The notes under the pieces: model-generated
What the model was told of the DNA's origin: nothing
Database searches by the model: none
The model's input: the letters and a program-made list of their open reading frames with translations, nothing else
Position numbers and translations under genes: made by a program
Shown: positions 34,668 through 46,528 of the stretch, piece after piece
Numbering within the stretch: the stretch's first letter is position 1
Layout: each line of letters opens with the position of its first letter
NCBI GenBank assembly: GCA_934176955.1
Contig: CAKPOS010000001.1
Span: forward strand, 28,310 to 92,309
DNA from: an uncultured Bacilli bacterium
GTDB lineage: Bacteria > Bacillota_I > Bacilli_A > RF39 > UBA660
Length of the DNA: 64,000 nucleotides
Reading direction: 5' to 3'

Positions 34668-35450
34668 ATGAATACTGTTGATAAAATTAATTTAATTTTA
34701 AAAAAAACAAATATCTCTAAAGTTAATTTGGCAAAATATTTAGGCGTTTCTAGACAAATGGTATATAATTATTTAGATAGTGATGATTTAAATAAGATGC
34801 CTGCTGAAAAGTGTCAATTGTTGTTTAATTTATTAGAAGTAAGAAGCTGTGAAGATATTGTAAATAAAGAACTTACTGATGAATATTTACAATCTGTTTC
34901 TAATAAAGTTTTTAATTATAAAAAAATTCCTTCAAAGAAAGAAGAAGTGATTGAACTTTCTGGATTAAAGAAAGAAGAACAAGAAATTATATCTGATATT
35001 GTTTTTCTTTTAAAAGAAATGTTAAATGAAAATAAAACGAAAGAGAGTTATATTACTTTAAAGTATTTATATCATTTTATTCAGTCATTGGCAAATATGA
35101 AGGAAGCAAAATATATATTAGGATACATTGCCAAAAATAATGGTTATTTAAAATATAATGTGTATGATTTTAATGAAGAAAATCAATTTATTTTTGAAAG
35201 CATTATGTATTCTGCAATGACTTTATATACAAATGGTGGCGCTTCAAGAAGTAAGTTAGCCGAATCACATCGTAGATGGGAAGCAGAATTAGAGAGAAAA
35301 AATGAAGAGAAATTAAGTCGTACACAGGAATTGAATACTGCTAAAGTACAAGCACTAAGAGAACTTGGATATACAGAGATTAATGAAAGAAATGCTAGTG
35401 AAGTGTTTGATAAGATAGCAGAAATTCAATCTAGAAATGATAAGTATTAA
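34668..35450 (+). CDS. XRE-family helix-turn-helix protein with a long C-terminal extension
   Basis: HTH ISKVNLAKYLGVSRQMVYNY near the N-terminus. 260 aa. Sits immediately upstream of the cas locus. Confidence 0.55.
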   Translation: MNTVDKINLILKKTNISKVNLAKYLGVSRQMVYNYLDSDDLNKMPAEKCQLLFNLLEVRSCEDIVNKELTDEYLQSVSNKVFNYKKIPSKKEEVIELSGLKKEEQEIISDIVFLLKEMLNENKTKESYITLKYLYHFIQSLANMKEAKYILGYIAKNNGYLKYNVYDFNEENQFIFESIMYSAMTLYTNGGASRSKLAESHRRWEAELERKNEEKLSRTQELNTAKVQALRELGYTEINERNASEVFDKIAEIQSRNDKY

Positions 35451-36054
35451 ATCGTTAGGATGATATTATTCATGAATCTTATTTTCTTACCATTTAAAAT
35501 TTTATTTGCTATTATCTTTTTTCCTTTTAAGATTGTTTTTAAACTGCTTGGAATTCGATGATAACATTGAGCAAATACTGATTCTTCGAAATTCAGTAGA
35601 CCTAACAAAAAGTATTCGTTATAAATTAACTTAATATTTATTTGAATTTTTTTAAAAATGATTTAGTTTTTTTAAATTTTAAGAAATAAAATATGATAAA
35701 ATCATGTCTAAAATTTAGATGTGATTTTTTAAACTCACCGAATTTCAAAGAACCCAAATACTGAAAACCATATCTAATTTTTTAGGTGTGGTTTTTGATT
35801 CCTTTGTATTAAAAATTTATCATTATTTCTTTATTTTGATTTTAATAAATTTATTATCAGATAAAAATAATTAAGTATTTTAAATAAGAAATAATATAAT
35901 GTTTAGTTTTTTAATACAAAGTTCTCTTTTTTGTACAATCAAAATATTTTACGCGATCAATTTTAAATGAAGAGAAGACTTTTCGATAGAAATTTGGTAC
36001 AATGAATTTAGGTAGTAAAAATATAATAAATTAATTAAGAAAGTAGGAAAAATA

Positions 36055-39000
36055 GTGAAAAAAGAAAATTATATTTTAGGATTAGATATTGGAATATCGT
36101 CTGTAGGTTGGGGATTATTAGCTTTAGATGAGAAAAATCAACCTTATAAGATTATTGATGTAGGAAGTCGAATCTTTTCTCCTGGAGAAGTAGAAAAAAC
36201 AGGAGATAGCAGGGCTAAAGAAAGAAGAGAAAAAAGAGGAATTAGGAGAAATATTAGAAGAAAAGAATTTCGACTTGATCGGGTAAGAAATCTATTATAT
36301 GAAGAAGGCTATTTAAAGGGAAATGTAACTAGTAATATTGTTTCAATAAAAAATGAAGAATTATCATTGTTATTTAATCATATGATTTGTCAATATTATC
36401 TTAATAAGAATACTAATCCTTATCGTTTGAAAGTAGAAGCGTTAGATAGAAAGCTAACAAATGAAGAATTATCAATAATATTAGTACATTATGCAAAGAA
36501 GAGAGGATATAAATCTAATCGTGAAGAAGCATCGGAAAATGATTCTGGGAAGGTATTAAGCGCTATTAAAGAAAATGAGAAAATAATGAATGAACATCAT
36601 TATCGTACTATTTCTGAAATGTACATAAAAGATGAAAAATTTAAAAATAAAATCAAAAATAGTCCTGGAGATTATAAGATTTCTGTAACGAATGAAATGT
36701 ATTTAGAAGAAATCAACAAAGTACTCGACAGTCAAATAAAATTTGGAGTAATTACTGATACTTTTAAAGATAAATACTTAGAAATATATAATTCTAGAAG
36801 AAGTTATGCTAAAGGACCTGGAGGCAATTCTCCTTATGGTGGGGATTTAATTGAAAGAATGACTGGAAAATGTAATTTTGATGGGAATCTGAGGGCACCT
36901 AAAAGAGCTTTTTCTTCAGAATTATATGTTGCATTAACAAAGTTAGTTAATCTAAAGTATAAAATTAATGATGGAGAATATAAAAGATTATCTAAAGAAG
37001 AAATCAGTTATATGATAGAAAAAGCTAAAGAAAAGAAAACAACAACATATAAGGATTTGATAAAAGTAATTGGAGAGGAAAATATAGAATTTAAAGAGTT
37101 ATCTCTATCTAAAAAAGAATATGGGAAATTAATTGAAAATTTAAAGAAAAAATTAAATATTGGAAAAGATAAAAAAGTGATTATTCATGAATTATCTAAT
37201 GAAGAGAAAGAGATTTACAATCAATTATATCATAATCAATTATATGATAAAACGTTAATAGAATTAAAAGGTTATCATGTATTAAAAGATAGTATAATAA
37301 AAGCTTATAGTAAAGATATTTGGGAAAAGGTTAAAGATAATGTAGAATTATTAGATGAACTTGCATTATATTGTACAAATTATAAAGTTGATGAAGACAT
37401 ACTAAATAAAATTAAAGAATCAGAAAATATAGATAATATATTTGAAGATATTCACTTTGTAGAATTGTTACCTAACTTTAAAGATCATTTAATGTTATCT
37501 ACAGAATTAATAAGAAAATTAATTCCTATTATGCTTGAAGGTAGTACATATGATAAGGCTATGGAAGAAATTGGATACAATCATTCTGATATAAACGGTG
37601 ATAAGGAAAAGAAAGATTTGTTAGTCCCTGTATGCGTTGATAGTAATATTACTAACCAAAGAGTAATTCGTTCTCTTACTCAAACTAGAAAAGTAATTAA
37701 TTCAATTATTAAAAAGTATGGAACTCCTAAAATTATTAATATAGAAACAGCTAGAGAACTTGCTAAAACTAGACAAGAAAGAAATGAAATAGCAAAAAAC
37801 AATGTAGAAAAGCAAGCTGAAAATGATAAAATTAAAAACCAATTAGTAGAATTAGGTTTATTTTCAAATCTTGATAAGATATCGAGTAATGACTTATTAA
37901 AGTATAAATTATGGAAAGAGCAAAATGAATTTTGTGGTTATAGCATGAAAAAAATATCGATTGAAGATTTATTTCAAAATAATATAGTTCAAATTGACCA
38001 CATATTACCTTATTCAAGAACTTATAATGATAGTTATTTTAACAAAACATTAGTATATACCAAAGAAAATCAAGAAAAAGGAAATAAGACACCATTTGAA
38101 TGGTTTGGTAAAACAGAAAAATGGGATGCATATGAAACATATATTAATCATTTGATGATATCTCAAAAGAAAAAAGATAATTATTTATTAAAGAAATTAG
38201 ATTTTGAGATGGAAAGAGAAATGAGAAATCAGAATCTTAATGATACTAAATATATTAGTAGAGAGTTATCTTCTTTAATTAAAGCATATTTAAATGTTGA
38301 AAAAGTAAATATGTATCCAGGTGCTATTACTTCTAAATTAAGAGCAAGATGGGGATTTAATCGACTTACTCATAGTTATTTATCAAAAACTTATAGATTA
38401 CCGGATGAGATGAAAAAAGATATTAATAAAGATAGAGATAATCATCTACATCATGCAATGGATGCTTTAGTAATCGCTTCTATAACACCATCATTACAAC
38501 AAAAGATAACGTTATATGAGAAGTTTAGTAGATATATTGATGGATTAACTGAATTACAAATTAAAAATATTCCATATATAAAGATAGATGATTCTGAAGG
38601 TCAATATTATAATGATAATACTGGTGAAATAGAAACTATTGATATAAAGGACTACATTAAAGAACAATTAGCAAATAATAATATATATTATAATAAGCAT
38701 AATATTAGTAAGTTAGAATTTCCACTTCCATATGAGGGATTTGATGAAGAAGCAAAGTTAAGAGTATACGAACAAGATTTAGACACTTTAAAATGGAATC
38801 TTCAATCATATAACACATACACAAAAAAAGATATAGAATCATTACATACATTAATACCATCTATTGCAAAATCTAAAATATCAGGTAAAATGCATGAAGA
38901 AACTTACTATGGAATAAAAGAATTTGGTAAAAATGAAGATAAAAAAGTATATAAGACTTTAAGGACACCTATTGAAAAGGTTAAAAGAAAAGACTTAGAA

Positions 39001-39690
39001 AATATTCCAGATAAATCGGGAGGTTCTAAAGAAATTTATGAAACTTTAGTAGAATGGTTTGGTGATTATGAAGTAGGAGAAGAAGTACTTAAAGCTAATG
39101 GAAATAAATATCCAGTATCTAAAAATGATAAAGAGCATAAAGAAATTAGAAAATTAAAATTATATAGTGAATATAAAAATACTGGCCACATGATTAATCA
39201 TAGTAATGTAGAAAAAGGTGGAATATATAGAGTTGATATATTTAAATCTAAAGATCAAGATGATGATAAATTATACTTTGCTGCTTATGATATATTGGAA
39301 ATAAAAAAAATTAATACATTAAGAGAAAAAAAGATGACAGATGATACCTTTACTATAAAATTAGATTATGGTCAAGGAAAAAATAATAGAATAATTTCGT
39401 ATACTGATATTGTAAATCATTATGATTTGTATCTTATTTTAAATAAAAATGATTTAATAAAAGTGATTACAAAGGATGGAAAAGAAAGCGTTGCTTATGT
39501 TGTTGGATGTTCTAGTGGAATGTTTGAAGTAAAAAGTAAATTAGGTGATGGATATGATATTATCGTTAATAGTTTTAATGAAAATAATATATTTAATAAG
39601 CAAAGAAAGCAATATGCAATAACTGTTTCTACAATTAAAAAAGTTAAAAAATTATCCATTAGTGTACTAGGAGAGATAAGTGGGTTATAG
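36055..39690 (+). CDS. cas9: type II CRISPR-associated endonuclease Cas9 (1211 aa)
   Basis: RuvC-I ILGLDIGISSVGWGLL, HNH block IDHILPYSRTYNDSYFNKTLVYTKENQEKGNKTPFEW, RuvC-III HHAMDALVIA. AGGAAAAATA RBS then GTG start. Confidence 0.92.
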   Translation: MKKENYILGLDIGISSVGWGLLALDEKNQPYKIIDVGSRIFSPGEVEKTGDSRAKERREKRGIRRNIRRKEFRLDRVRNLLYEEGYLKGNVTSNIVSIKNEELSLLFNHMICQYYLNKNTNPYRLKVEALDRKLTNEELSIILVHYAKKRGYKSNREEASENDSGKVLSAIKENEKIMNEHHYRTISEMYIKDEKFKNKIKNSPGDYKISVTNEMYLEEINKVLDSQIKFGVITDTFKDKYLEIYNSRRSYAKGPGGNSPYGGDLIERMTGKCNFDGNLRAPKRAFSSELYVALTKLVNLKYKINDGEYKRLSKEEISYMIEKAKEKKTTTYKDLIKVIGEENIEFKELSLSKKEYGKLIENLKKKLNIGKDKKVIIHELSNEEKEIYNQLYHNQLYDKTLIELKGYHVLKDSIIKAYSKDIWEKVKDNVELLDELALYCTNYKVDEDILNKIKESENIDNIFEDIHFVELLPNFKDHLMLSTELIRKLIPIMLEGSTYDKAMEEIGYNHSDINGDKEKKDLLVPVCVDSNITNQRVIRSLTQTRKVINSIIKKYGTPKIINIETARELAKTRQERNEIAKNNVEKQAENDKIKNQLVELGLFSNLDKISSNDLLKYKLWKEQNEFCGYSMKKISIEDLFQNNIVQIDHILPYSRTYNDSYFNKTLVYTKENQEKGNKTPFEWFGKTEKWDAYETYINHLMISQKKKDNYLLKKLDFEMEREMRNQNLNDTKYISRELSSLIKAYLNVEKVNMYPGAITSKLRARWGFNRLTHSYLSKTYRLPDEMKKDINKDRDNHLHHAMDALVIASITPSLQQKITLYEKFSRYIDGLTELQIKNIPYIKIDDSEGQYYNDNTGEIETIDIKDYIKEQLANNNIYYNKHNISKLEFPLPYEGFDEEAKLRVYEQDLDTLKWNLQSYNTYTKKDIESLHTLIPSIAKSKISGKMHEETYYGIKEFGKNEDKKVYKTLRTPIEKVKRKDLENIPDKSGGSKEIYETLVEWFGDYEVGEEVLKANGNKYPVSKNDKEHKEIRKLKLYSEYKNTGHMINHSNVEKGGIYRVDIFKSKDQDDDKLYFAAYDILEIKKINTLREKKMTDDTFTIKLDYGQGKNNRIISYTDIVNHYDLYLILNKNDLIKVITKDGKESVAYVVGCSSGMFEVKSKLGDGYDIIVNSFNENNIFNKQRKQYAITVSTIKKVKKLSISVLGEISGL

Positions 39691-40570
39691 GCAGGTTATT
39701 ATCAAAAAAAGTGAAAAATTACACTTTAAAGACAATCAATTAGTTATTGATAAAGAAGAAAATAGTACTAAAGTGCCTTTGGAAGATATAAGTTATATTT
39801 TAATTGAAGATTCAACAACTATTCTTACGACTAGATTACTTGCTGAATTAGGAAAAAATGCCATATCATTAATTGTATGTGATGAAAAATTTGAACCTAC
39901 GTCGATAATGTATCCCTATAATTATCATTTTAAACAATTAGATGTTTTTACCAATCAATTAGAAATTGATGATAGCATTAAAAATGAATTTTGGAATCAA
40001 ATAGTTAAGAGAAAAATTGAAAATAGTATTAGAGTATTGGAAATGACTTCCAAAGAAGAGTTTCCAATCTCTAAACTAAATGAATATATTAATGAAGTAA
40101 TAGATGGTGATTCAAAAAATAGGGAAGGATTAGCTGCAAAAATGTATTTTCGTAGTTTATTTGGAAGTGATTTTATAAGATTTTATGATGATAATATAAA
40201 TGCTGCTTTAAATTATGGATATACTATAATTGCAAGTGCTATTATCAGAAATTTAGCTGTATATGGACTAAATACTTATTTAGGAATTCATCATAGTTCT
40301 AAGATAAATAATTTTAATTTAGCATATGATTTTTTAGAACCATATCGATCTGTAGTTGATAAATTTATATATGATAATAAAGATGATATTGTATTACCAT
40401 TGTCTTTTGAATTTAGAAAGAAATTAATAAATTTACTAAATAAAGAAGTATTACACCAAAATAAAAAATATACTATTGAATATAGTATAGGATTATTAAT
40501 AAAAAGCTATATAAAATCTTTTTCTACTGGTGAAATAAAATTAGATTTACCTAGTATTATATATGAATAA
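39680..40570 (+). CDS. cas1: CRISPR-associated endonuclease Cas1 (type II)
   Basis: GYRQVIIKKSEKLHFKDNQLVI parallels type II Cas1 [22 protein letters not shown]. GTG start overlaps the cas9 stop by 11 nt. Confidence 0.85.
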   Translation: MGYRQVIIKKSEKLHFKDNQLVIDKEENSTKVPLEDISYILIEDSTTILTTRLLAELGKNAISLIVCDEKFEPTSIMYPYNYHFKQLDVFTNQLEIDDSIKNEFWNQIVKRKIENSIRVLEMTSKEEFPISKLNEYINEVIDGDSKNREGLAAKMYFRSLFGSDFIRFYDDNINAALNYGYTIIASAIIRNLAVYGLNTYLGIHHSSKINNFNLAYDFLEPYRSVVDKFIYDNKDDIVLPLSFEFRKKLINLLNKEVLHQNKKYTIEYSIGLLIKSYIKSFSTGEIKLDLPSIIYE

Positions 40571-40886
40571 TAGATTTATGAGAGTAATTGTAATGTTTGA
40601 TTTACCAGTAATTACAGAAAAAGAGAAAAAAATAGCTACTAAATTTAGAAAATATTTATTAGATGATGGTTTTGTCATGATGCAATATTCTGTTTATTCT
40701 AGAATCTGTAAAAATAATGACGATTTAAATAAGCATATAAAAAGATTAAAAATAAACGCTCCTAAAACTGGGAATATTCGACTACTTCAAATAACAGAAA
40801 ATCAATATAACAATATGATTATGTTTTCAGGTACAAAGTCGGTGGAAGAAGAAATTTCTATAGAAAATTTATTGATATTTGAATAA
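40563..40886 (+). CDS. cas2: CRISPR-associated endoribonuclease Cas2
   Basis: 107 aa, MRVIVMFDLPV...QYSVYSRI pattern. Overlaps the cas1 end by 8 nt. Confidence 0.8.
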   Translation: MNNRFMRVIVMFDLPVITEKEKKIATKFRKYLLDDGFVMMQYSVYSRICKNNDDLNKHIKRLKINAPKTGNIRLLQITENQYNNMIMFSGTKSVEEEISIENLLIFE

Positions 40887-40912
40887 AAAAAACAGGTATA
40901 AACCTGTTTTTT
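40887..40912. terminator. bidirectional intrinsic terminator shared by cas2 and the minus-strand tracrRNA
   Basis: AAAAAACAGGT-ATA-AACCTGTTTTTTT: perfect hairpin with an A-run on one side and a T-run on the other. Confidence 0.65.
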
Positions 40913-41001
40913 TGATCTTTAAGGTTAGATCAAACCTAAGGCATTATGCCTTATTACAGAAACCTGTAAACTTTTAGTAATGTATGTCCAATCTTTCAGG
41001 A
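40887..41001 (-). ncRNA. tracrRNA (about 115 nt) encoded antisense to the cas operon
   Basis: Minus-strand anti-repeat ACAUACAUUACUAAAAGUUUACAGGUUUCUGUAA is complementary, with a few mismatches and wobbles, to the array repeat. It is followed by UAAGGCAUAAUGCCUUA (nexus-like hairpin), a second hairpin, and the terminator. A TTGACT-17-TACAAT promoter sits just upstream. Confidence 0.65.
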
Positions 41002-41008
41002 CAATTTA

Positions 41009-41037
41009 ATTGTATCGTATTTTATTCTTTTAGTCAA
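41009..41037 (-). promoter_or_regulatory. tracrRNA promoter embedded in the 3' end of the csn2-like gene
   Basis: Minus strand TTGACT(41032-41037)-17 nt-TACAAT(41009-41014). The -35 overlaps the last codons and stop (ATT GAC TAA) of the csn2-like ORF. Confidence 0.55.
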
Positions 41038-42079
41038 TGAATTTATTTAATATTTCTAAAAAAAGATTTTGAGTTTCTTTGTTGTCACAAATAATATATT
41101 CACAAGTAATATTTTTAGGTTTATGTAATACAATTTTAATACTATCAGAATTTAATATTTTACTAATTTGATTAGAATATTTATTAATAATATTTTCTTT
41201 AATTTTTATTATTTCTTCAGTAGTGATTAATGATTCATTATTTATATAAAAATCATCAAATAATATAGTACTATTGCTTTTATTATATTCTGTTTTTAAT
41301 ATGTAATTTTTAATTGCTTCATCGATGATATTAAAGTTAATTATTTTGTCTGTTATTTTATATATATTATAATTATTGATATTAATATACTCAAATATAT
41401 TATTACAACTGCTTAATATGAAATGACAATTTTCGTTAGATAGATTATCAATAGTATTTAGTAAATTAATAATTTCATTAGTATTCAAATATACATCGAA
41501 ATTATTAATAATAATTATTGTTGGTTGGTTATCAATTTTTTTAATATCTAAAAAATATAATTGATATAATAGTTTTCTTTTCATTGATTTAGAAATAATA
41601 CTATCATTAAGCAAAACATCATCAATATAAATATTAGTAAATTTATCTATAATAGAATTAATATCAGGTATCTCTATTTGAAATGATATATTACTATCAC
41701 TTTTTTTATTTATTTTTCTATCTAGTAAATTATTTACTTTTTCATCTATTACATCAAATATTTCGTTGGTATATTTAACAATTTTTTCTTCATTAATTTT
41801 ATTAATAACATCATTGTAAATTATTTGTTTTAAAGTATTATTTTTAGTAAATTTAAATTCATTAGTAAAATCATTTTCTTCATTAATACTTATAATATTA
41901 AAATTTTTACTATTATAAGTATTTCCATTTATTAATATATTTTTATTTTTCCCAAGCAAACAATTATTTAATGTATTAATTACTTTATTTTTGTAATTGC
42001 TATTTTTCCCGAAGAAAATTAAGTTTTTATCTAATTTAATTATATTTGGTTGATTATCAATGCTTATAACAATTTCCAT
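41030..42079 (-). CDS. Csn2-like protein (long Csn2 subfamily?), in inverted orientation relative to cas9-cas1-cas2
   Basis: 349 aa, within the ~350-aa range of long Csn2. N-terminal IFFGKNSNYKNKVINTLNNCLLGKNK and C-proximal IIIINNFDVYL...CHFILSSCNNIFEYI follow the Csn2 pattern (from memory: IVGQNNELKYY..GGKK and LIVLKNIDGF...LTFILFPSDQGYL). Sits between cas2 and the array. A 1-kb ORF is highly non-random in ~25% GC DNA. Confidence 0.5.
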   Translation of the reverse strand: MEIVISIDNQPNIIKLDKNLIFFGKNSNYKNKVINTLNNCLLGKNKNILINGNTYNSKNFNIISINEENDFTNEFKFTKNNTLKQIIYNDVINKINEEKIVKYTNEIFDVIDEKVNNLLDRKINKKSDSNISFQIEIPDINSIIDKFTNIYIDDVLLNDSIISKSMKRKLLYQLYFLDIKKIDNQPTIIIINNFDVYLNTNEIINLLNTIDNLSNENCHFILSSCNNIFEYININNYNIYKITDKIINFNIIDEAIKNYILKTEYNKSNSTILFDDFYINNESLITTEEIIKIKENIINKYSNQISKILNSDSIKIVLHKPKNITCEYIICDNKETQNLFLEILNKFID

Positions 42080-42200
42080 TTTTATTATTACCTCAACACA
42101 ATTGTATCAAATATATTTAAAATAATCTATATGTTGGTGTTAATATTTTTTTAAATTCAATATTGTATATTTTTTCTATAAATGATATAATTTATTTGAG
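42080..42200 (+). promoter_or_regulatory. CRISPR leader with extended -10 promoter
   Basis: AT-rich. TGATATAAT at 42183-42191 about 10 nt before the first repeat. Also holds the divergent promoter/RBS of the csn2-like gene. Confidence 0.5.
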
Positions 42201-42968
42201 GTTACAGGACCCTGTTAATTTTTAGTAATGTATAACAAGTTATTATAGTAAATGTTATTATACTACGTTACAGGACCCTGTTAATTTTTAGTAATGTATA
42301 ACAGGAACATGTTGAGTTATATCAACAAGTAAGTTACAGGACCCTGTTAATTTTTAGTAATGTATAACTAAACTAAATGAATTCAAGGGTTTACAAAGGT
42401 TACAGGACCCTGTTAATTTTTAGTAATGTATAACAGCTTGTTTAACTATCTCTTTTGATAATGGTTACAGGACCCTGTTAATTTTTAGTAATGTATAACT
42501 TAAAATGAACGAAAAAAGAGAAAGAATAGGTTACAGGACCCTGTTAATTTTTAGTAATGTATAACTGTTCACAACGTTTTACAATATACACAGCAGTTAC
42601 AGGACCCTGTTAATTTTTAGTAATGTATAACTAGAAGAAATTTAAAAGATAGGTAATTTACGTTACAGGACCCTGTTAATTTTTAGTAATGTATAACATG
42701 GGGTAAAAGTGGAGAATTTGTAAGCAAGTTACAGGACCCTGTTAATTTTTAGTAATGTATAACCACTTCAATTAAAATTGAAAGAGAGGTAAAGTTACAG
42801 GACCCTGTTAATTTTTAGTAATGTATAACTTTTGATAATATAAGTGATTATTTGTATAAGTTACAGGACCCTGTTAATTTTTAGTAATGTATAACTATCA
42901 CAAATAAGGCTAGTAATGTAAGTAAGTTACAGGACCCTGTTAATTTTTAGTAATTAGTAATGTATAAC
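42201..42968 (+). CRISPR. CRISPR array, 12 repeats / 11 spacers, repeat GTTACAGGACCCTGTTAATTTTTAGTAATGTATAAC (36 nt)
   Basis: Eleven identical repeats start at 42201, 42267, 42333, 42399, 42464, 42530, 42596, 42662, 42728, 42794, 42860. Spacers are 30 nt except spacer 4 (29 nt). The terminal repeat 42926-42968 carries a 7-nt TAGTAAT duplication. Confidence 0.95.
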
Positions 42969-43447
42969 ATAATGACAAGATTAATACAAAAAAACTTAAA
43001 TTTTAACGAAATATCAAGATGAACTAAAGAAAATGCAAATAACACACCCACCTATATTACCAAAACAAAAGTTAAAACAGAAATAAGTGTAAACTTAATT
43101 TTTAATAGAGAAGGGGAGAGTGAAAAAAATTCAAGTCCCCTATTTTATATAATAAAAAGTAATTATTTATTGTTATCAAAGTTATCAAAATATAAAATAT
43201 ATTTACCTATATAAAATATTCTATAATAAAATAACGTTATTTATTAAATAAAATTAAAATTATTTAATTCATTTAATTTATAATTTTTTGAATTTATATT
43301 TAATTTTATTTTGAATTATTGTTATTTAAATTCTTTTTAAAAGCTTTAAATTTATCAAAAAAGTTTTATATATAATTAGTTAGATTTTAAATAAAAAAAT
43401 AAACTAAAATTAAAGTTTAGATTTTAAAATTTAATTTGAAATTAAAA

Positions 43448-43650
43448 AGTTGGATAATTATCCATCTCAAGTTAAATTTTAGAGAAATAAAAATGGAATC
43501 GAAAATCAAAAAGATGAATGATTGTACAACTCAAGTTAAATTTAAGTCAAGTAAAATTTAACTTGAGAATTAAAAAATTGGATAACTATCCATCTCAATT
43601 TAAATTTTTTTTAATTTAGATCTCTAAATTTAATTTGAGTTGATGAATGA
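43448..43650. repeat. cluster of nested direct/inverted repeats with DnaA-box-like palindromes in an ORF-free region
   Basis: TTGGATAATTATCCATCTCAAGTTAAATTT (43450-43479) and TTGGATAACTATCCATCTCAATTTAAATTT (43578-43607). Between them is the palindrome CTCAAGTTAAATTT...AAATTTAACTTGAG. CAACTCAAGTTAAATTT (43527) and its inverted partner (43627-43645) are flanked by direct GATGAATGAT copies. Confidence 0.5.
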
Positions 43651-43978
43651 TGATGATTTATTCAATTCAAACTTTATTAATTTATGTAATTATGTAATAA
43701 TGTATTAATTAATTGAAAATAATATATAGTAGTTTATAATTTATAAAACTTATATATTGATTAATTCATTCATTATAAACTTTGAAAAAAATGTTTAGTA
43801 TAGCTATAAATTTATCTTAAAAATTCTATTTTTGTTAGTTCCTATAATTTATATTATGTAAACTTCTGTATCTAAAATAGAAAGAAAACCCTTATATTAT
43901 AAGGGCCTATTCCATTATTTTAGTTTCATTTTTAATTCTTAAATCTTAATTCAATATCAGTATTTTTTGTTCATCATT

Positions 43979-46528
43979 TTATTTTAATTTTTCTTTTAAC
44001 TCATATAATAAATTTAAAGCTTTTAAAGGGGTTAATTCTAGAACGTTTGTTTGTTTTAAGATTTCTTCAACTTCGCTTTTTTCAGTTATTTTTTGAGAAA
44101 TAACATCTAGTGGTAAACTTGTTTGAATAGCAATTTCTTTTTTACTTGGATCGTTATTTTCATAAGCTGCTAATATTTCAGATGCTCTACTTAACACTTC
44201 GTTTGGTAATCCTGCTAATTTAGCAACATTAATTCCATAACTTTTGTCGACACTACCATCTTTTACTTTGTGTAAAAAGATGATATTTTCTCCATCTTCT
44301 GACGCAGATACATGTTTATTTTTTAAGTGCTTTAACTCTTTTTCTAATTTAGTTAATTCATGATAATGCGTTGAAAATAACGTTTTACAACCAATTGTAT
44401 TGTTTACATATTCTAATATTGCTTGTGCTAGACTCATTCCATCATAAGTAGCAGTTCCCCTACCCAATTCATCGAATAAAATCAGACTACTTTTGGTAGC
44501 ATTTTTTAAAGCGTGTGTAGCCTCAATCATCTCAACCATGAAAGTAGATTCTCCACTGACTAAGTCATCACTGGCACCTATTCTTGTGAATATTTGGTCG
44601 AATATTGGCATTTTTGCTTCTTTTGCAGGGACAAAACATCCTATTTGGGACATAATAGCAATTATTCCTAATTGTCTCATATAAGTACTTTTTCCAGCCA
44701 TATTAGGGCCTGTAATTAATAGTGTATATACACCGTTATCCATTACAATATCATTAGGAACATATTCTCCTTTAATTACTCTTTCTACTACAGGATGTCT
44801 TGATTCTATTAATTTTAAGCTATGATCTAATGTTAAAGTTGGTCTTACATAATTATATCTTTCACTCACTGAGGCAAAGCTTTGTAAAACATCTATTTCG
44901 CTAATTGTTTTAGCAATTTTTTGTAATTTAGGAATATATTTTTTGATTTTATCTCTAATTTCGATAAATAGTTCATATTCTAAATTAATGATTTTTTCTT
45001 CTGCACTTAGAATTAAATCTTCTTTTTCTTTTAAAAGAGGAGTAATAAATCTTTCACAATTTGTTAAAGTTTGCTTTCTAATATAACCCATATCCTCTCG
45101 AATTAGTCCTAAGTTACTTTTAGATATTTCAATGTAATAACCAAATACTTTATTAAATCCTATTTTTAAATTTTTTATTCCTGTTCTTTCTTTTTCTTCT
45201 AATTCGAATTTGCTGATGAAGTCCTTTCCCCCACTTCTTAATTCTTTTAGTTCATCTAATTCACTGGAGTAACCTTTTTTGATTAAATATCCTTCTTTTA
45301 AGGTAATAGGGGGTTCTTCATAAATGGCTGCTTCTAGGAGGTCATATAAGTCTGATAAGGGGTTGATGTCACTATAAAACTTTATTTCTTTTAACATTTC
45401 TGCAATGATAGGTAATACTTTTAGGGAATTTTTTAATTGAATTAAATCTCTTCCATTGGCATTTCCTAAAGCTATTCTTCCACTTAATCTTTCTAAGTCA
45501 TAAATTTCATATAAATTTTTTCTTAAATCTTCTGCTAAGATAAATTCTTCGATTAATTTGCTGACAACTTCATGCCTTTTTTCAATGGGTTTCTTTTCTT
45601 TTAATGGAGCTTCAATCCATTGTTTTAATTTTCGACTTCCCATGGCTGTTTTAGTATTATCCAAAAGCCATAGTAAAGAGTAATTTCTATCTTTTAAACG
45701 AAGACTTTCTGTTAATTCTAGATTTCTTTTGGTATGAATATCCATCTTTAAGAAATTGTCAGTTTCATTAATGATTACTTTTTGTAAGTGACCTAAGCTT
45801 CTTTTTTGATTGATAACTAAATAATATAGTAAATGTTTAATCGAATTGATATAGCGACTATCGGTAATCCCCTTATAGCAGAATTTATATTCTTCTGTTT
45901 CAAGAATGTTATTTACCAATGTTACAGTTAAGTGATATTGTTCTTTTAGTAAATGAATAATATTAGAATTTACTAATTTGTTAATAATTACTTCTCTTAA
46001 TCCAAAAGATAAGATATCGTTAATTAATTTATCATCATCATGAGGAATGATTTCAGCATATAATTCTCCAGTTGTAATATCTGTATAGACAATAGAATAG
46101 CAATATTCATAATCATAGATGCTCCCAATATAATTATTTGTTTTTTCATCTAAGCTATTAGAACTAATAATGGTTCCTGAAGAAATCACTTCTGTAACAT
46201 CTCTTTTAACAATTCCTTTGGCAGATTTTGGATCTTCTAATTGTTCACAAATAGCCACTTTAAATCCTTGTTTAATTAGTTTATCAACATAAATATCTAC
46301 TGCGTGATGAGGAACGCCACACATGGGTACTCTTTCTTCTAAGCCAGCATTTCTTCCTGTTAGTGTTAATTCTAGGGCATGAGAGACGACTTCAGCATCT
46401 TCAAAGAACATTTCATAGAAATCTCCTAAGCGATATAATAAGATTACATCGGGATATTTGTCCTTTAATTCAACATAATGCCTCATCATAGGGGCTAATT
46501 TTGTTCTATCAATTTCACTTATTTTCAT
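43979..46528 (-). CDS. mutS: DNA mismatch repair protein MutS
   Basis: N-terminal mismatch-binding MMRHYVELKDKYPDVILLYRLGDFYEMF. Walker A GPNMAGKSTYMRQ. 849 aa. A CCCTTATATTATAAGGG terminator lies downstream on the minus strand. Confidence 0.9.
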   Translation of the reverse strand: MKISEIDRTKLAPMMRHYVELKDKYPDVILLYRLGDFYEMFFEDAEVVSHALELTLTGRNAGLEERVPMCGVPHHAVDIYVDKLIKQGFKVAICEQLEDPKSAKGIVKRDVTEVISSGTIISSNSLDEKTNNYIGSIYDYEYCYSIVYTDITTGELYAEIIPHDDDKLINDILSFGLREVIINKLVNSNIIHLLKEQYHLTVTLVNNILETEEYKFCYKGITDSRYINSIKHLLYYLVINQKRSLGHLQKVIINETDNFLKMDIHTKRNLELTESLRLKDRNYSLLWLLDNTKTAMGSRKLKQWIEAPLKEKKPIEKRHEVVSKLIEEFILAEDLRKNLYEIYDLERLSGRIALGNANGRDLIQLKNSLKVLPIIAEMLKEIKFYSDINPLSDLYDLLEAAIYEEPPITLKEGYLIKKGYSSELDELKELRSGGKDFISKFELEEKERTGIKNLKIGFNKVFGYYIEISKSNLGLIREDMGYIRKQTLTNCERFITPLLKEKEDLILSAEEKIINLEYELFIEIRDKIKKYIPKLQKIAKTISEIDVLQSFASVSERYNYVRPTLTLDHSLKLIESRHPVVERVIKGEYVPNDIVMDNGVYTLLITGPNMAGKSTYMRQLGIIAIMSQIGCFVPAKEAKMPIFDQIFTRIGASDDLVSGESTFMVEMIEATHALKNATKSSLILFDELGRGTATYDGMSLAQAILEYVNNTIGCKTLFSTHYHELTKLEKELKHLKNKHVSASEDGENIIFLHKVKDGSVDKSYGINVAKLAGLPNEVLSRASEILAAYENNDPSKKEIAIQTSLPLDVISQKITEKSEVEEILKQTNVLELTPLKALNLLYELKEKLK

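Follow-up and report, generated by a model that had tools for sequence, protein, structure and literature searches.

TracrRNAs of described type II CRISPR-Cas systems obey a few general rules: the lower stem starts on a G:U pair, a GG-based nexus comes after an AA, and the RNA has a terminator (Faure et al. 2018, PMC6546382). At the sequence level, the RNA predicted in the locus described here displays all of these, namely the G:U start, the AA with a GG-based nexus, and 3' hairpins with a Rho-independent terminator, together with a promoter of its own; moreover, it would be transcribed opposite to cas9 from a place flanked by the adaptation genes and the array, a class of position and orientation listed in PMC6546382. 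Like the tracrRNAs of compact Cas9 proteins, it would form an imperfect anti-repeat:repeat duplex of ~36 bp and have a Rho-independent terminator as well as additional hairpins in its 3' part, but it differs from them in being flanked by cas2 and a convergent csn2, its terminator head-to-head with the cas operon, in having a conserved 5'-terminal hairpin and possibly a GGU/ACC pseudoknot, and in showing, at repeat position 10, a conserved C·U mismatch where the classical duplex has a bulge. The layout of cas2, tracrRNA and convergent csn2 is not among the typical positions given by Chylinski et al. (PMC3737331) and Faure et al. (PMC6546382).

The type II-A systems of S. pyogenes and S. thermophilus share with this locus the set of Cas9, Cas1, Cas2 and Csn2, 36-nt repeats separated by spacers of ~30 nt, and the addition of spacers at the leader end. 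They differ from it in csn2, which is here on the opposite strand and divergent from leader and array, and whose product here lacks a match in Pfam, NCBIfam or among solved structures. The Cas9 and Cas1 sequences of the locus are nearest to type II-C-type proteins (AtCas9 and the cas1_NMENI model), and the other nearest Cas9 entries are presumably GeoCas9 and NmeCas9. The nexus AAGGCAUAAUGCC resembles the AAGGCAAAAUGCC of SaCas9, the type II-A protein of S. aureus, whose sgRNA scaffold contains ...AAAACAAGGCAAAAUGCCG....

Gene content and direction of the array

The window, a stretch of 64 kb (64,000 nucleotides), derives from a gut bacterium that is AT-rich, uncultured and represented solely by metagenome-assembled genomes, and contains the following genes and array elements:

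36055..39690, plus strand: cas9, 1211 aa (TIGR01865, E = 2.7e-184; Pfam HNH_4 and RuvC_III)
39680..40570, plus strand: cas1 (TIGR03639 cas1_NMENI, E = 2.5e-84)
40563..40886, plus strand: cas2 (TIGR01573, E = 3.5e-28), stop codon at 40884-40886
41030..42079, minus strand: csn2, 349 aa (PADLOC PDLC01597, E = 5e-104, full length), stop codon at 41032-41030
42183..42200, plus strand: leader end, with an extended -10 TGaTATAAT and then ...ATTTGAG abutting the first repeat
42201..42968, plus strand: CRISPR array, 12 repeats of GTTACAGGACCCTGTTAATTTTTAGTAATGTATAAC and 11 spacers

The presence of csn2 alongside cas9, cas1 and cas2 points to a type II-A CRISPR-Cas locus. The gene that an initial annotation had called csn2-like is identified as Csn2 by the PADLOC model; searches with the 349-aa protein returned no Pfam or NCBIfam family match and no PDB relative, and this Csn2 belongs to a divergent Csn2 family matched by the PADLOC model alone. 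The gene converges with cas9-cas1-cas2 and its orientation is kept in relatives; a csn2 on the opposite strand is atypical for type II-A, yet conserved. The Cas9 is widespread in metagenomes of the human gut, where 345 relatives were found at E <= 1e-50, with identities of 81-93% among the matches listed (120 of 345), and no description of the Cas9 lineage of the window was found in the literature.

The array lies ~1.2 kb from the tracrRNA element and its reading direction is established by three independent features. Specifically, the leader end, with its extended -10 box and the ATTTGAG that agrees with the leader-anchoring motif reported from S. pyogenes, is kept before the first repeat in all lineages, inverted arrays included; the last repeat is degenerate and carries a 7-nt duplication; and the spacers are polarized, with strain-unique ones at the leader end and shared ones at the far end. 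Because leader motif, degenerate last repeat and spacer polarity agree, the array is assigned to the plus strand, and the tracrRNA is therefore placed on the minus strand. New spacers join the array at its leader end. One array spacer is an exact match to the SSB gene of a phage contig (three spacers scanned against viral contigs). A BLAST search of 632 spacers of the clade against 40 related phage contigs yielded four distinct protospacers, with the 3' flanks ATATTTTA, ATAATATT, GTGAAGTA and TCATTACT; no PAM was called since four protospacers are too few and come from different Cas9 variants, and this set gave no second test of orientation.

The minus-strand RNA element and its conservation

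The interval between cas2 and csn2 very probably encodes the tracrRNA of this type II-A CRISPR-Cas9 locus. The elements recognized in it and at its borders are:

41032..41037, minus strand: -35 box TTGACT, spanning GAC, the final Asp codon of csn2, and base 1 of its stop codon
41009..41014, minus strand: -10 box TACAAT, 17 nt past the -35 box; TATAAT in most relatives
40885..41002, minus strand: predicted primary tracrRNA of ~116-118 nt, from about G41002 to the U-run at 40892-40885
40986..41002, minus strand: 5'-terminal hairpin, GUCC-UGAAAGAUU-GGAC, starting at the predicted +1
40953..40988, minus strand: anti-repeat, complementary to the CRISPR repeat
40937..40953, minus strand: nexus or stem-loop 1, UAAGGCAUAAUGCCUUA, pairing as U-AA-GGCA-UAA-UGCC-UUA
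40934..40936, minus strand: GGU linker between nexus and hairpin 2, with an invariant GG
40912..40933, minus strand: hairpin 2, UUGAUCU-AACCUUAA-AGAUCAA
40885..40913, both strands: bidirectional intrinsic terminator, AAAAAAACAGGUUUAUACCUGUUUUUUUU on the minus strand, with the core CAGGU-UUAU-ACCUG

On the plus strand, positions 40953-40988 are identical to the 36-nt repeat at 29/36 nucleotides, while no repeat match in 100 shuffled versions of the window exceeded 25/36 identities (mean of the best matches 22.9). A degenerate repeat copy had been annotated at 40955-40990; the copy is present, and its borders were 1-2 bases off. The duplex of repeat and anti-repeat contains 29 Watson-Crick pairs, 3 G·U pairs and 4 mismatches and is energetically favourable, as had been anticipated, with -36.5 kcal/mol against -8.4 +/- 2.5 kcal/mol for shuffled anti-repeats, and the G1·U pair at the start of the lower stem is found in 18/18 species compared. 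A scan of both strands of the 64 kb, upstream of cas9 included, found no other anti-repeat or strong duplex partner outside the array. Repeat and anti-repeat co-vary from species to species: a G30-to-A change in the repeat is matched by a C-to-U change in the tracrRNA in lineages L026 and L040, and several paired changes occur in L044 and L051.

The 119-nt minus-strand RNA folds at -35.8 kcal/mol (z = -5.07; 0/200 shuffles as good), and a covariance model (R1) scores 146.7 bits at the element of the window. In 41 related loci, whose Cas9 proteins are 61-88% identical to that of the window, this model scores above 100 bits, with place and strand unchanged, and it gives 51 bits in L044, where Cas9 identity is 52%; in all 41 loci and in L044 the element lies opposite to the cas9 strand between cas2 and csn2. 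The core of the element is invariant across the species with a 61-88% identical Cas9, and the repeat copy and its flanks surpass the adjacent protein genes in conservation. Compensatory changes affect 15/29 pairs, a count that none of 500 shuffles reaches and that falls to 2-5 in slid controls, with 94.4% of the cells of the structural alignment being paired; this alignment was fitted to the model and is thus biased toward structure, which is partly offset by the slid controls and by RNAalifold, which recovers the same helices unaided.

The individual hairpins are constrained in different ways. The 5'-terminal hairpin shows compensatory changes in 4/5 pairs and is found independently by RNAalifold, and distant lineages have other 5' stems at the same place (GUAUC/GAUAC, GUACAG/CUGUAC). 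This conserved hairpin was absent from the initial annotation. The nexus-like hairpin that had been proposed to follow the anti-repeat is present as UAAGGCAUAAUGCCUUA at 40953-40937 of the minus strand, where the junction reads ...CUGUAAU-AA-GGCAUAAUGCC..., and its stem is invariant in 24 distinct sequences, with changes in the loop only. Conversely, the second hairpin had been drawn as AGGUU/AACCU, a pairing that can be formed on the sequence as a plain hairpin but is rejected by the comparative data, with 0 compensatory changes and 11 broken cells in 24 distinct sequences; only its GGU/ACC core is kept, as a possible pseudoknot. Hairpin 2 is instead formed by UUGAUCU/AGAUCAA, in which 3 pairs show compensatory changes and one changes from C-G to U-G, in agreement with RNAalifold; its stems are wholly different in distant lineages.

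When 35000-44000 was scanned against Rfam (cmscan, E <= 10), the tracrRNA family was not hit, the single match being weak and unrelated. The RNA of the window is within the functional class of tracrRNAs and outside the Rfam tracrRNA sequence family, and the miss is no argument against the assignment because that family is too narrow and includes few Firmicutes lineages. A literature search with the repeat and tracrRNA sequences returned unrelated chance matches only, and a scan of the tracrRNA region found no tRNA or tmRNA. A 32-aa ORF on the plus strand (40879-40977), which overlaps the tracrRNA element, is regarded as spurious.

Predicted transcription, shared terminator and alternative readings

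A sigma-70-type promoter, with the -35 box within the last csn2 codons, would drive minus-strand transcription from about G41002, a start deduced from the position of the -10 box. The resulting RNA would carry, from 5' to 3', the 5' hairpin, the 36-nt anti-repeat, AA and nexus, the GGU linker, hairpin 2 and the terminator. The TTGACT-17-TACAAT promoter proposed earlier at the end of csn2 is found at 41037-41009, its -35 box overlapping the csn2 stop codon by one base, and is backed by relatives: the TTGAC and TAnAAT boxes keep their register in 23/25 distinct upstream sequences (21 of the 23 with TTGAC) around a spacer that varies, and the last Asp codon of csn2 is kept as GAC, the rare one of the two (GAT:GAC = 113:12 over four cas genes). 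Across this AT-rich region as a whole, hexamers resembling promoter boxes show no enrichment (85 found against 77 +/- 11 expected), so that the promoter call relies on conservation and not on the scan. An internal TTTACA-16-CATAAT (40970-40943) would produce an RNA lacking the anti-repeat and is regarded as a by-product of the conserved RNA sequence.

At the other end, the U-run of the tracrRNA terminator extends into the cas2 stop codon (40884-40886), sharing its AA. In the window, 8 T residues follow the stem on the minus strand and 7 on the plus strand; over 24 distinct terminators, the T-runs count 3-8 residues on the strand of the tracrRNA and 2-7 on that of cas2, and the hairpin shows compensatory changes in 8/10 pairs. 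The earlier proposal of a terminator common to tracrRNA and cas2 agrees with these data, and a single terminator is predicted to end both the tracrRNA on the minus strand and the converging cas9-cas1-cas2 operon on the plus strand. By analogy with other type II systems, the anti-repeat would pair with each repeat of the plus-strand pre-crRNA, starting from the usual G·U beside the spacer, host RNase III would cut the duplex when Cas9 is present, and the processed crRNA:tracrRNA would then guide Cas9.

The tracrRNA could be real and still derive for the most part from csn2 mRNAs that read through and are processed to release it from their 3' end, with TTGACT/TACAAT not being its main source. 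Since the tracrRNA follows the csn2 stop (41030) with no terminator in between, transcripts of csn2 must continue into it and stop at its terminator; moreover, the tracrRNA stays directly 3' of csn2 on the same strand even in the inverted blocks of L047, L051 and L063. Such an origin is nonetheless unlikely, given that the promoter boxes are in register (23/25) across a variable spacer with the rare GAC kept in the -35 box, that the conserved 5' hairpin starts exactly at the predicted +1, and that in the L049 lineage, where the tracrRNA has moved upstream of cas9, a TTGAC-17-TAAGAT promoter of its own is retained. The own-promoter and csn2 read-through routes are not mutually exclusive.

Two further readings place the functional copy on the plus strand. 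If the array were read from the minus strand, the tracrRNA would consist of the plus-strand copy at 40953-40989 and a following hairpin, GUCCAAUCUUUCAGGAC, an arrangement with experimental precedent in some type II-C systems; direction calls based on degenerate repeats were wrong for N. meningitidis and C. jejuni (Chylinski et al., PMC3737331). Among solved structures, the Cas9 of the window is indeed nearest to type II-C Cas9s. This orientation is extremely improbable, since its duplex is weaker (-29.8 vs -36.5 kcal/mol) and the differences between repeat and anti-repeat, which form 2-5 G·U pairs with the tracrRNA on the minus strand, turn into mismatches with 0-1 G·U in 17/18 species (18 compared; the L044 row needs a gap and is uninformative). 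Moreover, the plus strand lacks AA and nexus, a terminator before csn2 and a promoter, and the copy there sits just past the cas2 terminator; the helices hold G-U variants that would read A-C, and hence be broken, on that strand; and leader motif and spacer polarity put the leader 5' of GTTAC. The G·U asymmetry and the duplex energy, together with the leader motif and the polarity of the spacers, led to the rejection of a tracrRNA on the opposite strand, and the minus strand named in the initial annotation is upheld by the three tests of array direction, the G·U asymmetry and the conserved element. The crRNAs of an array on the plus strand would carry the repeat as GUUACAGG.... The plus-strand copy could otherwise be a decayed orphan or a stand-alone "cr-like" regulatory repeat, a relic of array rearrangement flanked by hairpins that merely terminate cas2 and csn2; regulatory stand-alone repeats occur in CRISPR loci (bioRxiv 10.1101/2023.03.03.530964), and array rearrangements clearly happened in the clade. 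It is nevertheless very improbable: the locus would be left without a tracrRNA, there being no other anti-repeat in the 64 kb, the copy and its flanks exceed the neighbouring protein genes in conservation and have an invariant core, the non-terminator helices co-vary, and the nexus motif is exactly where a tracrRNA needs one.

Predicted guide scaffold and its possible pseudoknot

The scaffold of this tracrRNA family may, as a tentative reading of the alignment, hold an H-type pseudoknot in which the GGN that follows the nexus pairs with an N'CC on the 5' side of the hairpin 2 loop. In the window, the candidate partners on the minus strand are GGU at 40934-40936 and ACC at 40925-40923. Throughout the lineages, GG and CC are invariant and the third pair is lineage-dependent (U-A, G-C or C-G), with GGU/ACC in the window clade, GGG/CCC in the L044 and L051 lineages and GGC/GCC in the L049 lineage, among which the hairpin 2 stems are completely different; the third position is C/C in L040. 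The tracrRNA also appears to move together with csn2 as a single cassette, which one lineage has inverted in block. The C. jejuni scaffold provides a precedent for tertiary pairing 3' of the nexus that is relevant only to this tentative GGU/ACC pairing, and it differs in topology and sequence from the 3-bp H-type interaction proposed here between the post-nexus linker and the loop of hairpin 2. If true, the GGU/ACC pairing would give Cas9 guide scaffolds a tertiary motif that is new apart from the C. jejuni case, and would limit how an sgRNA can be truncated; the correction of hairpin 2 likewise matters for scaffold truncation.

The predicted tracrRNA is a standard component, expected in a type II system of the known kind, and brings no new mechanism. 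With its strand, limits and covariation-backed structure, it fills in the RNA that was missing for an uncharacterised 1211-aa Cas9, for which a dual guide or an sgRNA can now be built, the predicted sgRNA being 5'-N22-GUUACAGGACCCUGUUAAUUUUUAGUAAUG-GAAA-CAUUACUAAAAGUUUACAGGUUUCUGUAAUAAGGCAUAAUGCCUUAGGUUUGAUCUAACCUUAAAGAUCAAAAAAACAGGUUUAUACCUGUUUUUUUU.

Gene content and reading direction of the locus

The AT-rich window (26.7% G+C) holds a complete type II CRISPR-Cas locus at 36055-42968.

Genes, promoter and array of the CRISPR-Cas locus (positions in the window)
36055-39690, plus strand: cas9, 1211 aa, TIGR01865 (E = 2.7e-184), with HNH and RuvC domains
39680-40570, plus strand: cas1, matching the type II model cas1_NMENI
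40563-40886, plus strand: cas2
41037-41009, minus strand: predicted promoter TTGACT-17-TACAAT, the -35 box sharing one base with the csn2 stop codon
41030-42079, minus strand: csn2, 349-aa ORF
42201-42968, plus strand: CRISPR array, 12 repeats GTTACAGGACCCTGTTAATTTTTAGTAATGTATAAC, spacers of 29-30 nt
42926-42968, plus strand: last repeat, with an internal 7-nt duplication (TAGTAAT TAGTAAT)

The PADLOC Csn2 model PDLC01597 spans the whole product of the gene called csn2-like in the initial annotation (E = 5e-104), for which Pfam, NCBIfam and solved Csn2 structures give no match. Because csn2 accompanies cas9, cas1 and cas2, the system is type II-A by gene content; yet its Cas9 is nearest, among solved structures, to type II-C proteins, with Alicyclobacillus tengchongensis AtCas9 as the top match (21dz/9wad; bioRxiv 10.64898/2026.01.30.702744), and its Cas1 fits cas1_NMENI. 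Related loci (L handles) were gathered by a Cas9-alignment scan, which yielded 8 genome loci and 56 metagenome loci with Cas9 37%-88% identical to that of the window; the nearest genomes are MAGs labelled uncultured Bacilli or Tenericutes, and the human gut is named in two metagenome contig names. The csn2 gene converges on cas9-cas1-cas2 and diverges from leader and array in the window, in L001-L007 and in L044, and its orientation is kept in every clade locus extending that far.

A tracrRNA is necessarily antisense to the repeat of the crRNA, so its strand follows from the direction in which the array is read, and three independent lines of evidence point to plus-strand transcription of the array. 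Specifically, the leader end comprises an extended -10 box (TGaTATAAT) and then ATTTGAG immediately 5' of repeat 1 (42183-42200), a motif conserved clade-wide even in loci with the array flipped with respect to cas9; the terminal repeat far from the leader is degenerate, through the duplication in the window and through substitutions in L005; and the arrays of close strains (L010/L034, L032/L042, L052/L061) have far-end spacers in common and differ in leader-end spacers. ATTTGAG resembles the sequence that reportedly anchors the leader in the type II-A system of S. pyogenes. The predicted start of the pre-crRNA lies only a few bases 5' of repeat 1.

The spacer at 42698-42727 exactly matches an IMG/VR viral contig (L065, 6488-6517) inside a phage SSB gene; genes for an endolysin, a replication initiator and a resolvase also lie on this contig. 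Two spacers of L026 match the same phage with 2-3 mismatches. No PAM is proposed, because the protospacer search collected only four. The array and mutS are separated by ~1 kb of non-coding, very AT-rich sequence (42969-43978), including a 64-nt tandem repeat in 2.7 copies with TTGGATAAnTATCCA palindromes (43439-43608).

Strand, anti-repeat and fold of the predicted tracrRNA

The degenerate repeat copy on which a minus-strand tracrRNA had been proposed is present on the plus strand at 40953-40988, with 29 of 36 identities and no gaps, one or two bases away from the coordinates first assigned to it, and all the sequence elements quoted with it occur in the window. Outside the array, no other site on either strand of the 64 kb reaches 22/36 repeat identities, while the best match in shuffled windows is 25/36 at most. 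The duplex of the repeat RNA with the minus-strand copy is favourable, at -36.5 kcal/mol versus -8.4 +/- 2.5 for shuffled partners, and an energy scan of both strands of the window returned no second duplex partner for the repeat; the 119-nt minus-strand RNA has a folding z-score of -5.07. The opposite orientation gives a weaker duplex (-29.8 kcal/mol). Moreover, in ungapped alignments of the 18 species having both array and element, differences between repeat and copy form 2-5 G·U pairs in 17 of 18 when the tracrRNA is read from the minus strand, against 0-1 in the opposite orientation, L044 being uninformative here because it needs a gap. Array direction, G·U asymmetry and duplex energy thus agree on the minus strand.

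The two partners also change together: in L026 and L040 a G30-to-A change in the repeat is paired with C-to-U in the tracrRNA, in L055 a U19-to-C change converts a U·G pair to C-G, and several changes in L044 and L051 are likewise matched. As judged from these substitutions, repeat and anti-repeat co-evolve. A G·U pair at repeat position 1 and a C·U mismatch at position 10 are retained in all lineages. This mismatch lies at the centre of a small palindrome present in each repeat (ACAGG-ACC-CUGU; e.g. 42201-42236) and mirrored in the anti-repeat as ACAGG-UUU-CUGU, an unusual feature, as palindromes are generally absent from type II repeats.

Predicted elements of the tracrRNA, 5' to 3'
From the predicted +1, minus strand: 5' hairpin, GUCC/GGAC in the window; 4 of 5 pairs co-vary
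40953-40988, minus strand: anti-repeat, 3' of the 5' hairpin and 5' of the nexus
3' of the anti-repeat, minus strand: nexus hairpin, UAAGGCA/UGCCUUA; the loop alone varies
3' of the nexus, minus strand: hairpin 2, UUGAUCU/AGAUCAA, loop AACCUUAA
40934-40936 with 40923-40925, minus strand: candidate 3-bp pseudoknot, GGU with ACC; third pair U-A, G-C or C-G by lineage
3' end of the tracrRNA, both strands: terminator hairpin; 8 of 10 pairs co-vary

Over 24 distinct sequences, 94.4% of cells are paired and 15 of 29 pairs show compensatory changes, values reached by 0 of 500 shuffles; sliding the partners by 1-3 columns lowers the pairs with compensatory changes to 2-5, and RNAalifold, run without a supplied structure, gives the same helices. 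The nexus-like hairpin already recognised has an invariant stem in all 24. Conversely, the second hairpin originally drawn, AGGUU/AACCU, is ruled out by the lack of any compensatory change and by 11 broken cells; its place is taken by UUGAUCU/AGAUCAA, where G-C changes to A-U, A-U to G-C, U-A to A-U or C-G, and C-G to U-G. The guide scaffold proposed from the earlier drawing is unchanged, because the RNA sequence is the same, and the conserved 5' hairpin predicted from the alignment is an addition to that drawing.

In all four lineages a GGN triplet follows the nexus and the loop of hairpin 2 has N'CC on its 5' side: GGU with ACC in the window clade, GGG with CCC in L044 and L051, and GGC with GCC in L049. 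Between these lineages the stems of hairpin 2 show no sequence relationship; L040 has GGC/CCC, a mismatch at the third pair. We judge the loop lengths compatible with an H-type pseudoknot, which could form and, with few independent events, is only a lead.

Synteny, promoter and terminator among relatives

A covariance model of the element, built on seven species, scores 146.7 bits in the window and above 100 bits in 41 loci (that of the window included), always opposite to the cas9 strand; L044 (Cas9 52% identical) scores 51 bits, and the other weak matches are CRISPR arrays themselves. In the closer clade, every locus reaching far enough has cas9, cas1 and cas2 on one strand, and the element, then csn2, on the other. 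In L006, L025, L026, L029, L030, L040 and L043 the array alone is inverted, so that array, csn2 and tracrRNA are co-directional. In L047, L051 and L063 (Cas9 ~49% identical) the array-leader-csn2-tracrRNA block is inverted as a unit, the tracrRNA being still 3' of csn2 on the same strand. In L049, L052, L054 and L059 the tracrRNA is relocated upstream of cas9 with its own promoter, TTGAC-17-TAAGAT, and L048 and L053 carry the same anti-repeat copy upstream of cas9.

A promoter scan by itself proves nothing here, because this AT-rich DNA shows no excess of promoter-like hexamers (85 versus 77 +/- 11 expected). The promoter noted at the end of csn2 is upheld by comparison: TTGAC and TA(T/C/A)(A/G)AT stand in register, 17 nt apart and four bases 5' of TTGTCC, in 23 of 25 distinct upstream sequences, while the spacer between the boxes varies freely. 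In L025 and L027 the -10 box and the start are unchanged, and a ~40-nt insertion lies 3' of the 5' hairpin. The -35 box falls in the last two csn2 codons (Ile-Asp-stop), and its Asp codon is the rare GAC where the four cas genes prefer GAT (113 GAT, 12 GAC), which points to selection at the nucleotide level. Another promoter-like sequence, TTTACA-16-CATAAT (40943-40970, minus strand), lies inside the tracrRNA and is made up of anti-repeat and nexus-loop bases; it is probably a side effect of RNA sequence conservation.

The terminator said to be shared with cas2 is supported by its T-runs on both strands, which in the window count 8 on the tracrRNA strand and 7 on that of cas2. Across 24 distinct terminators these runs are 3-8 (mean 5.7) and 2-7 (mean 4.3), respectively; by these lengths, the hairpin plausibly works in both directions, with the more consistent constraint on the side of the tracrRNA.

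Expected role and significance

Complementarity, strand, synteny, conservation, covariation, and promoter and terminator conservation are established here at the sequence level. [quoted passage not shown] The RNA fits the tracrRNA rules of Faure et al. (PMC6546382): its lower stem opens with G:U, AA leads into a GG-based nexus, and a terminator is present. Among the positions given by the same authors is one that lies, in either orientation, between array and adaptation genes. The four typical positions of Chylinski et al. (PMC3737331) do not include the one between cas2 and csn2; both papers stress that tracrRNA position and orientation vary even in close relatives. The repeat and tracrRNA sequences occur in no searchable paper, and Rfam has no family matching the RNA.

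The initial interpretation is supported, with its second hairpin corrected, a 5' hairpin added and its coordinates slightly shifted, and the RNA is just what a type II locus would be expected to contain. Two small curiosities accompany it: a csn2-tracrRNA cassette whose terminator is head-to-head, and a pseudoknot that may form. Its practical value lies in providing a guide scaffold for a gut Cas9 that is so far uncharacterised.
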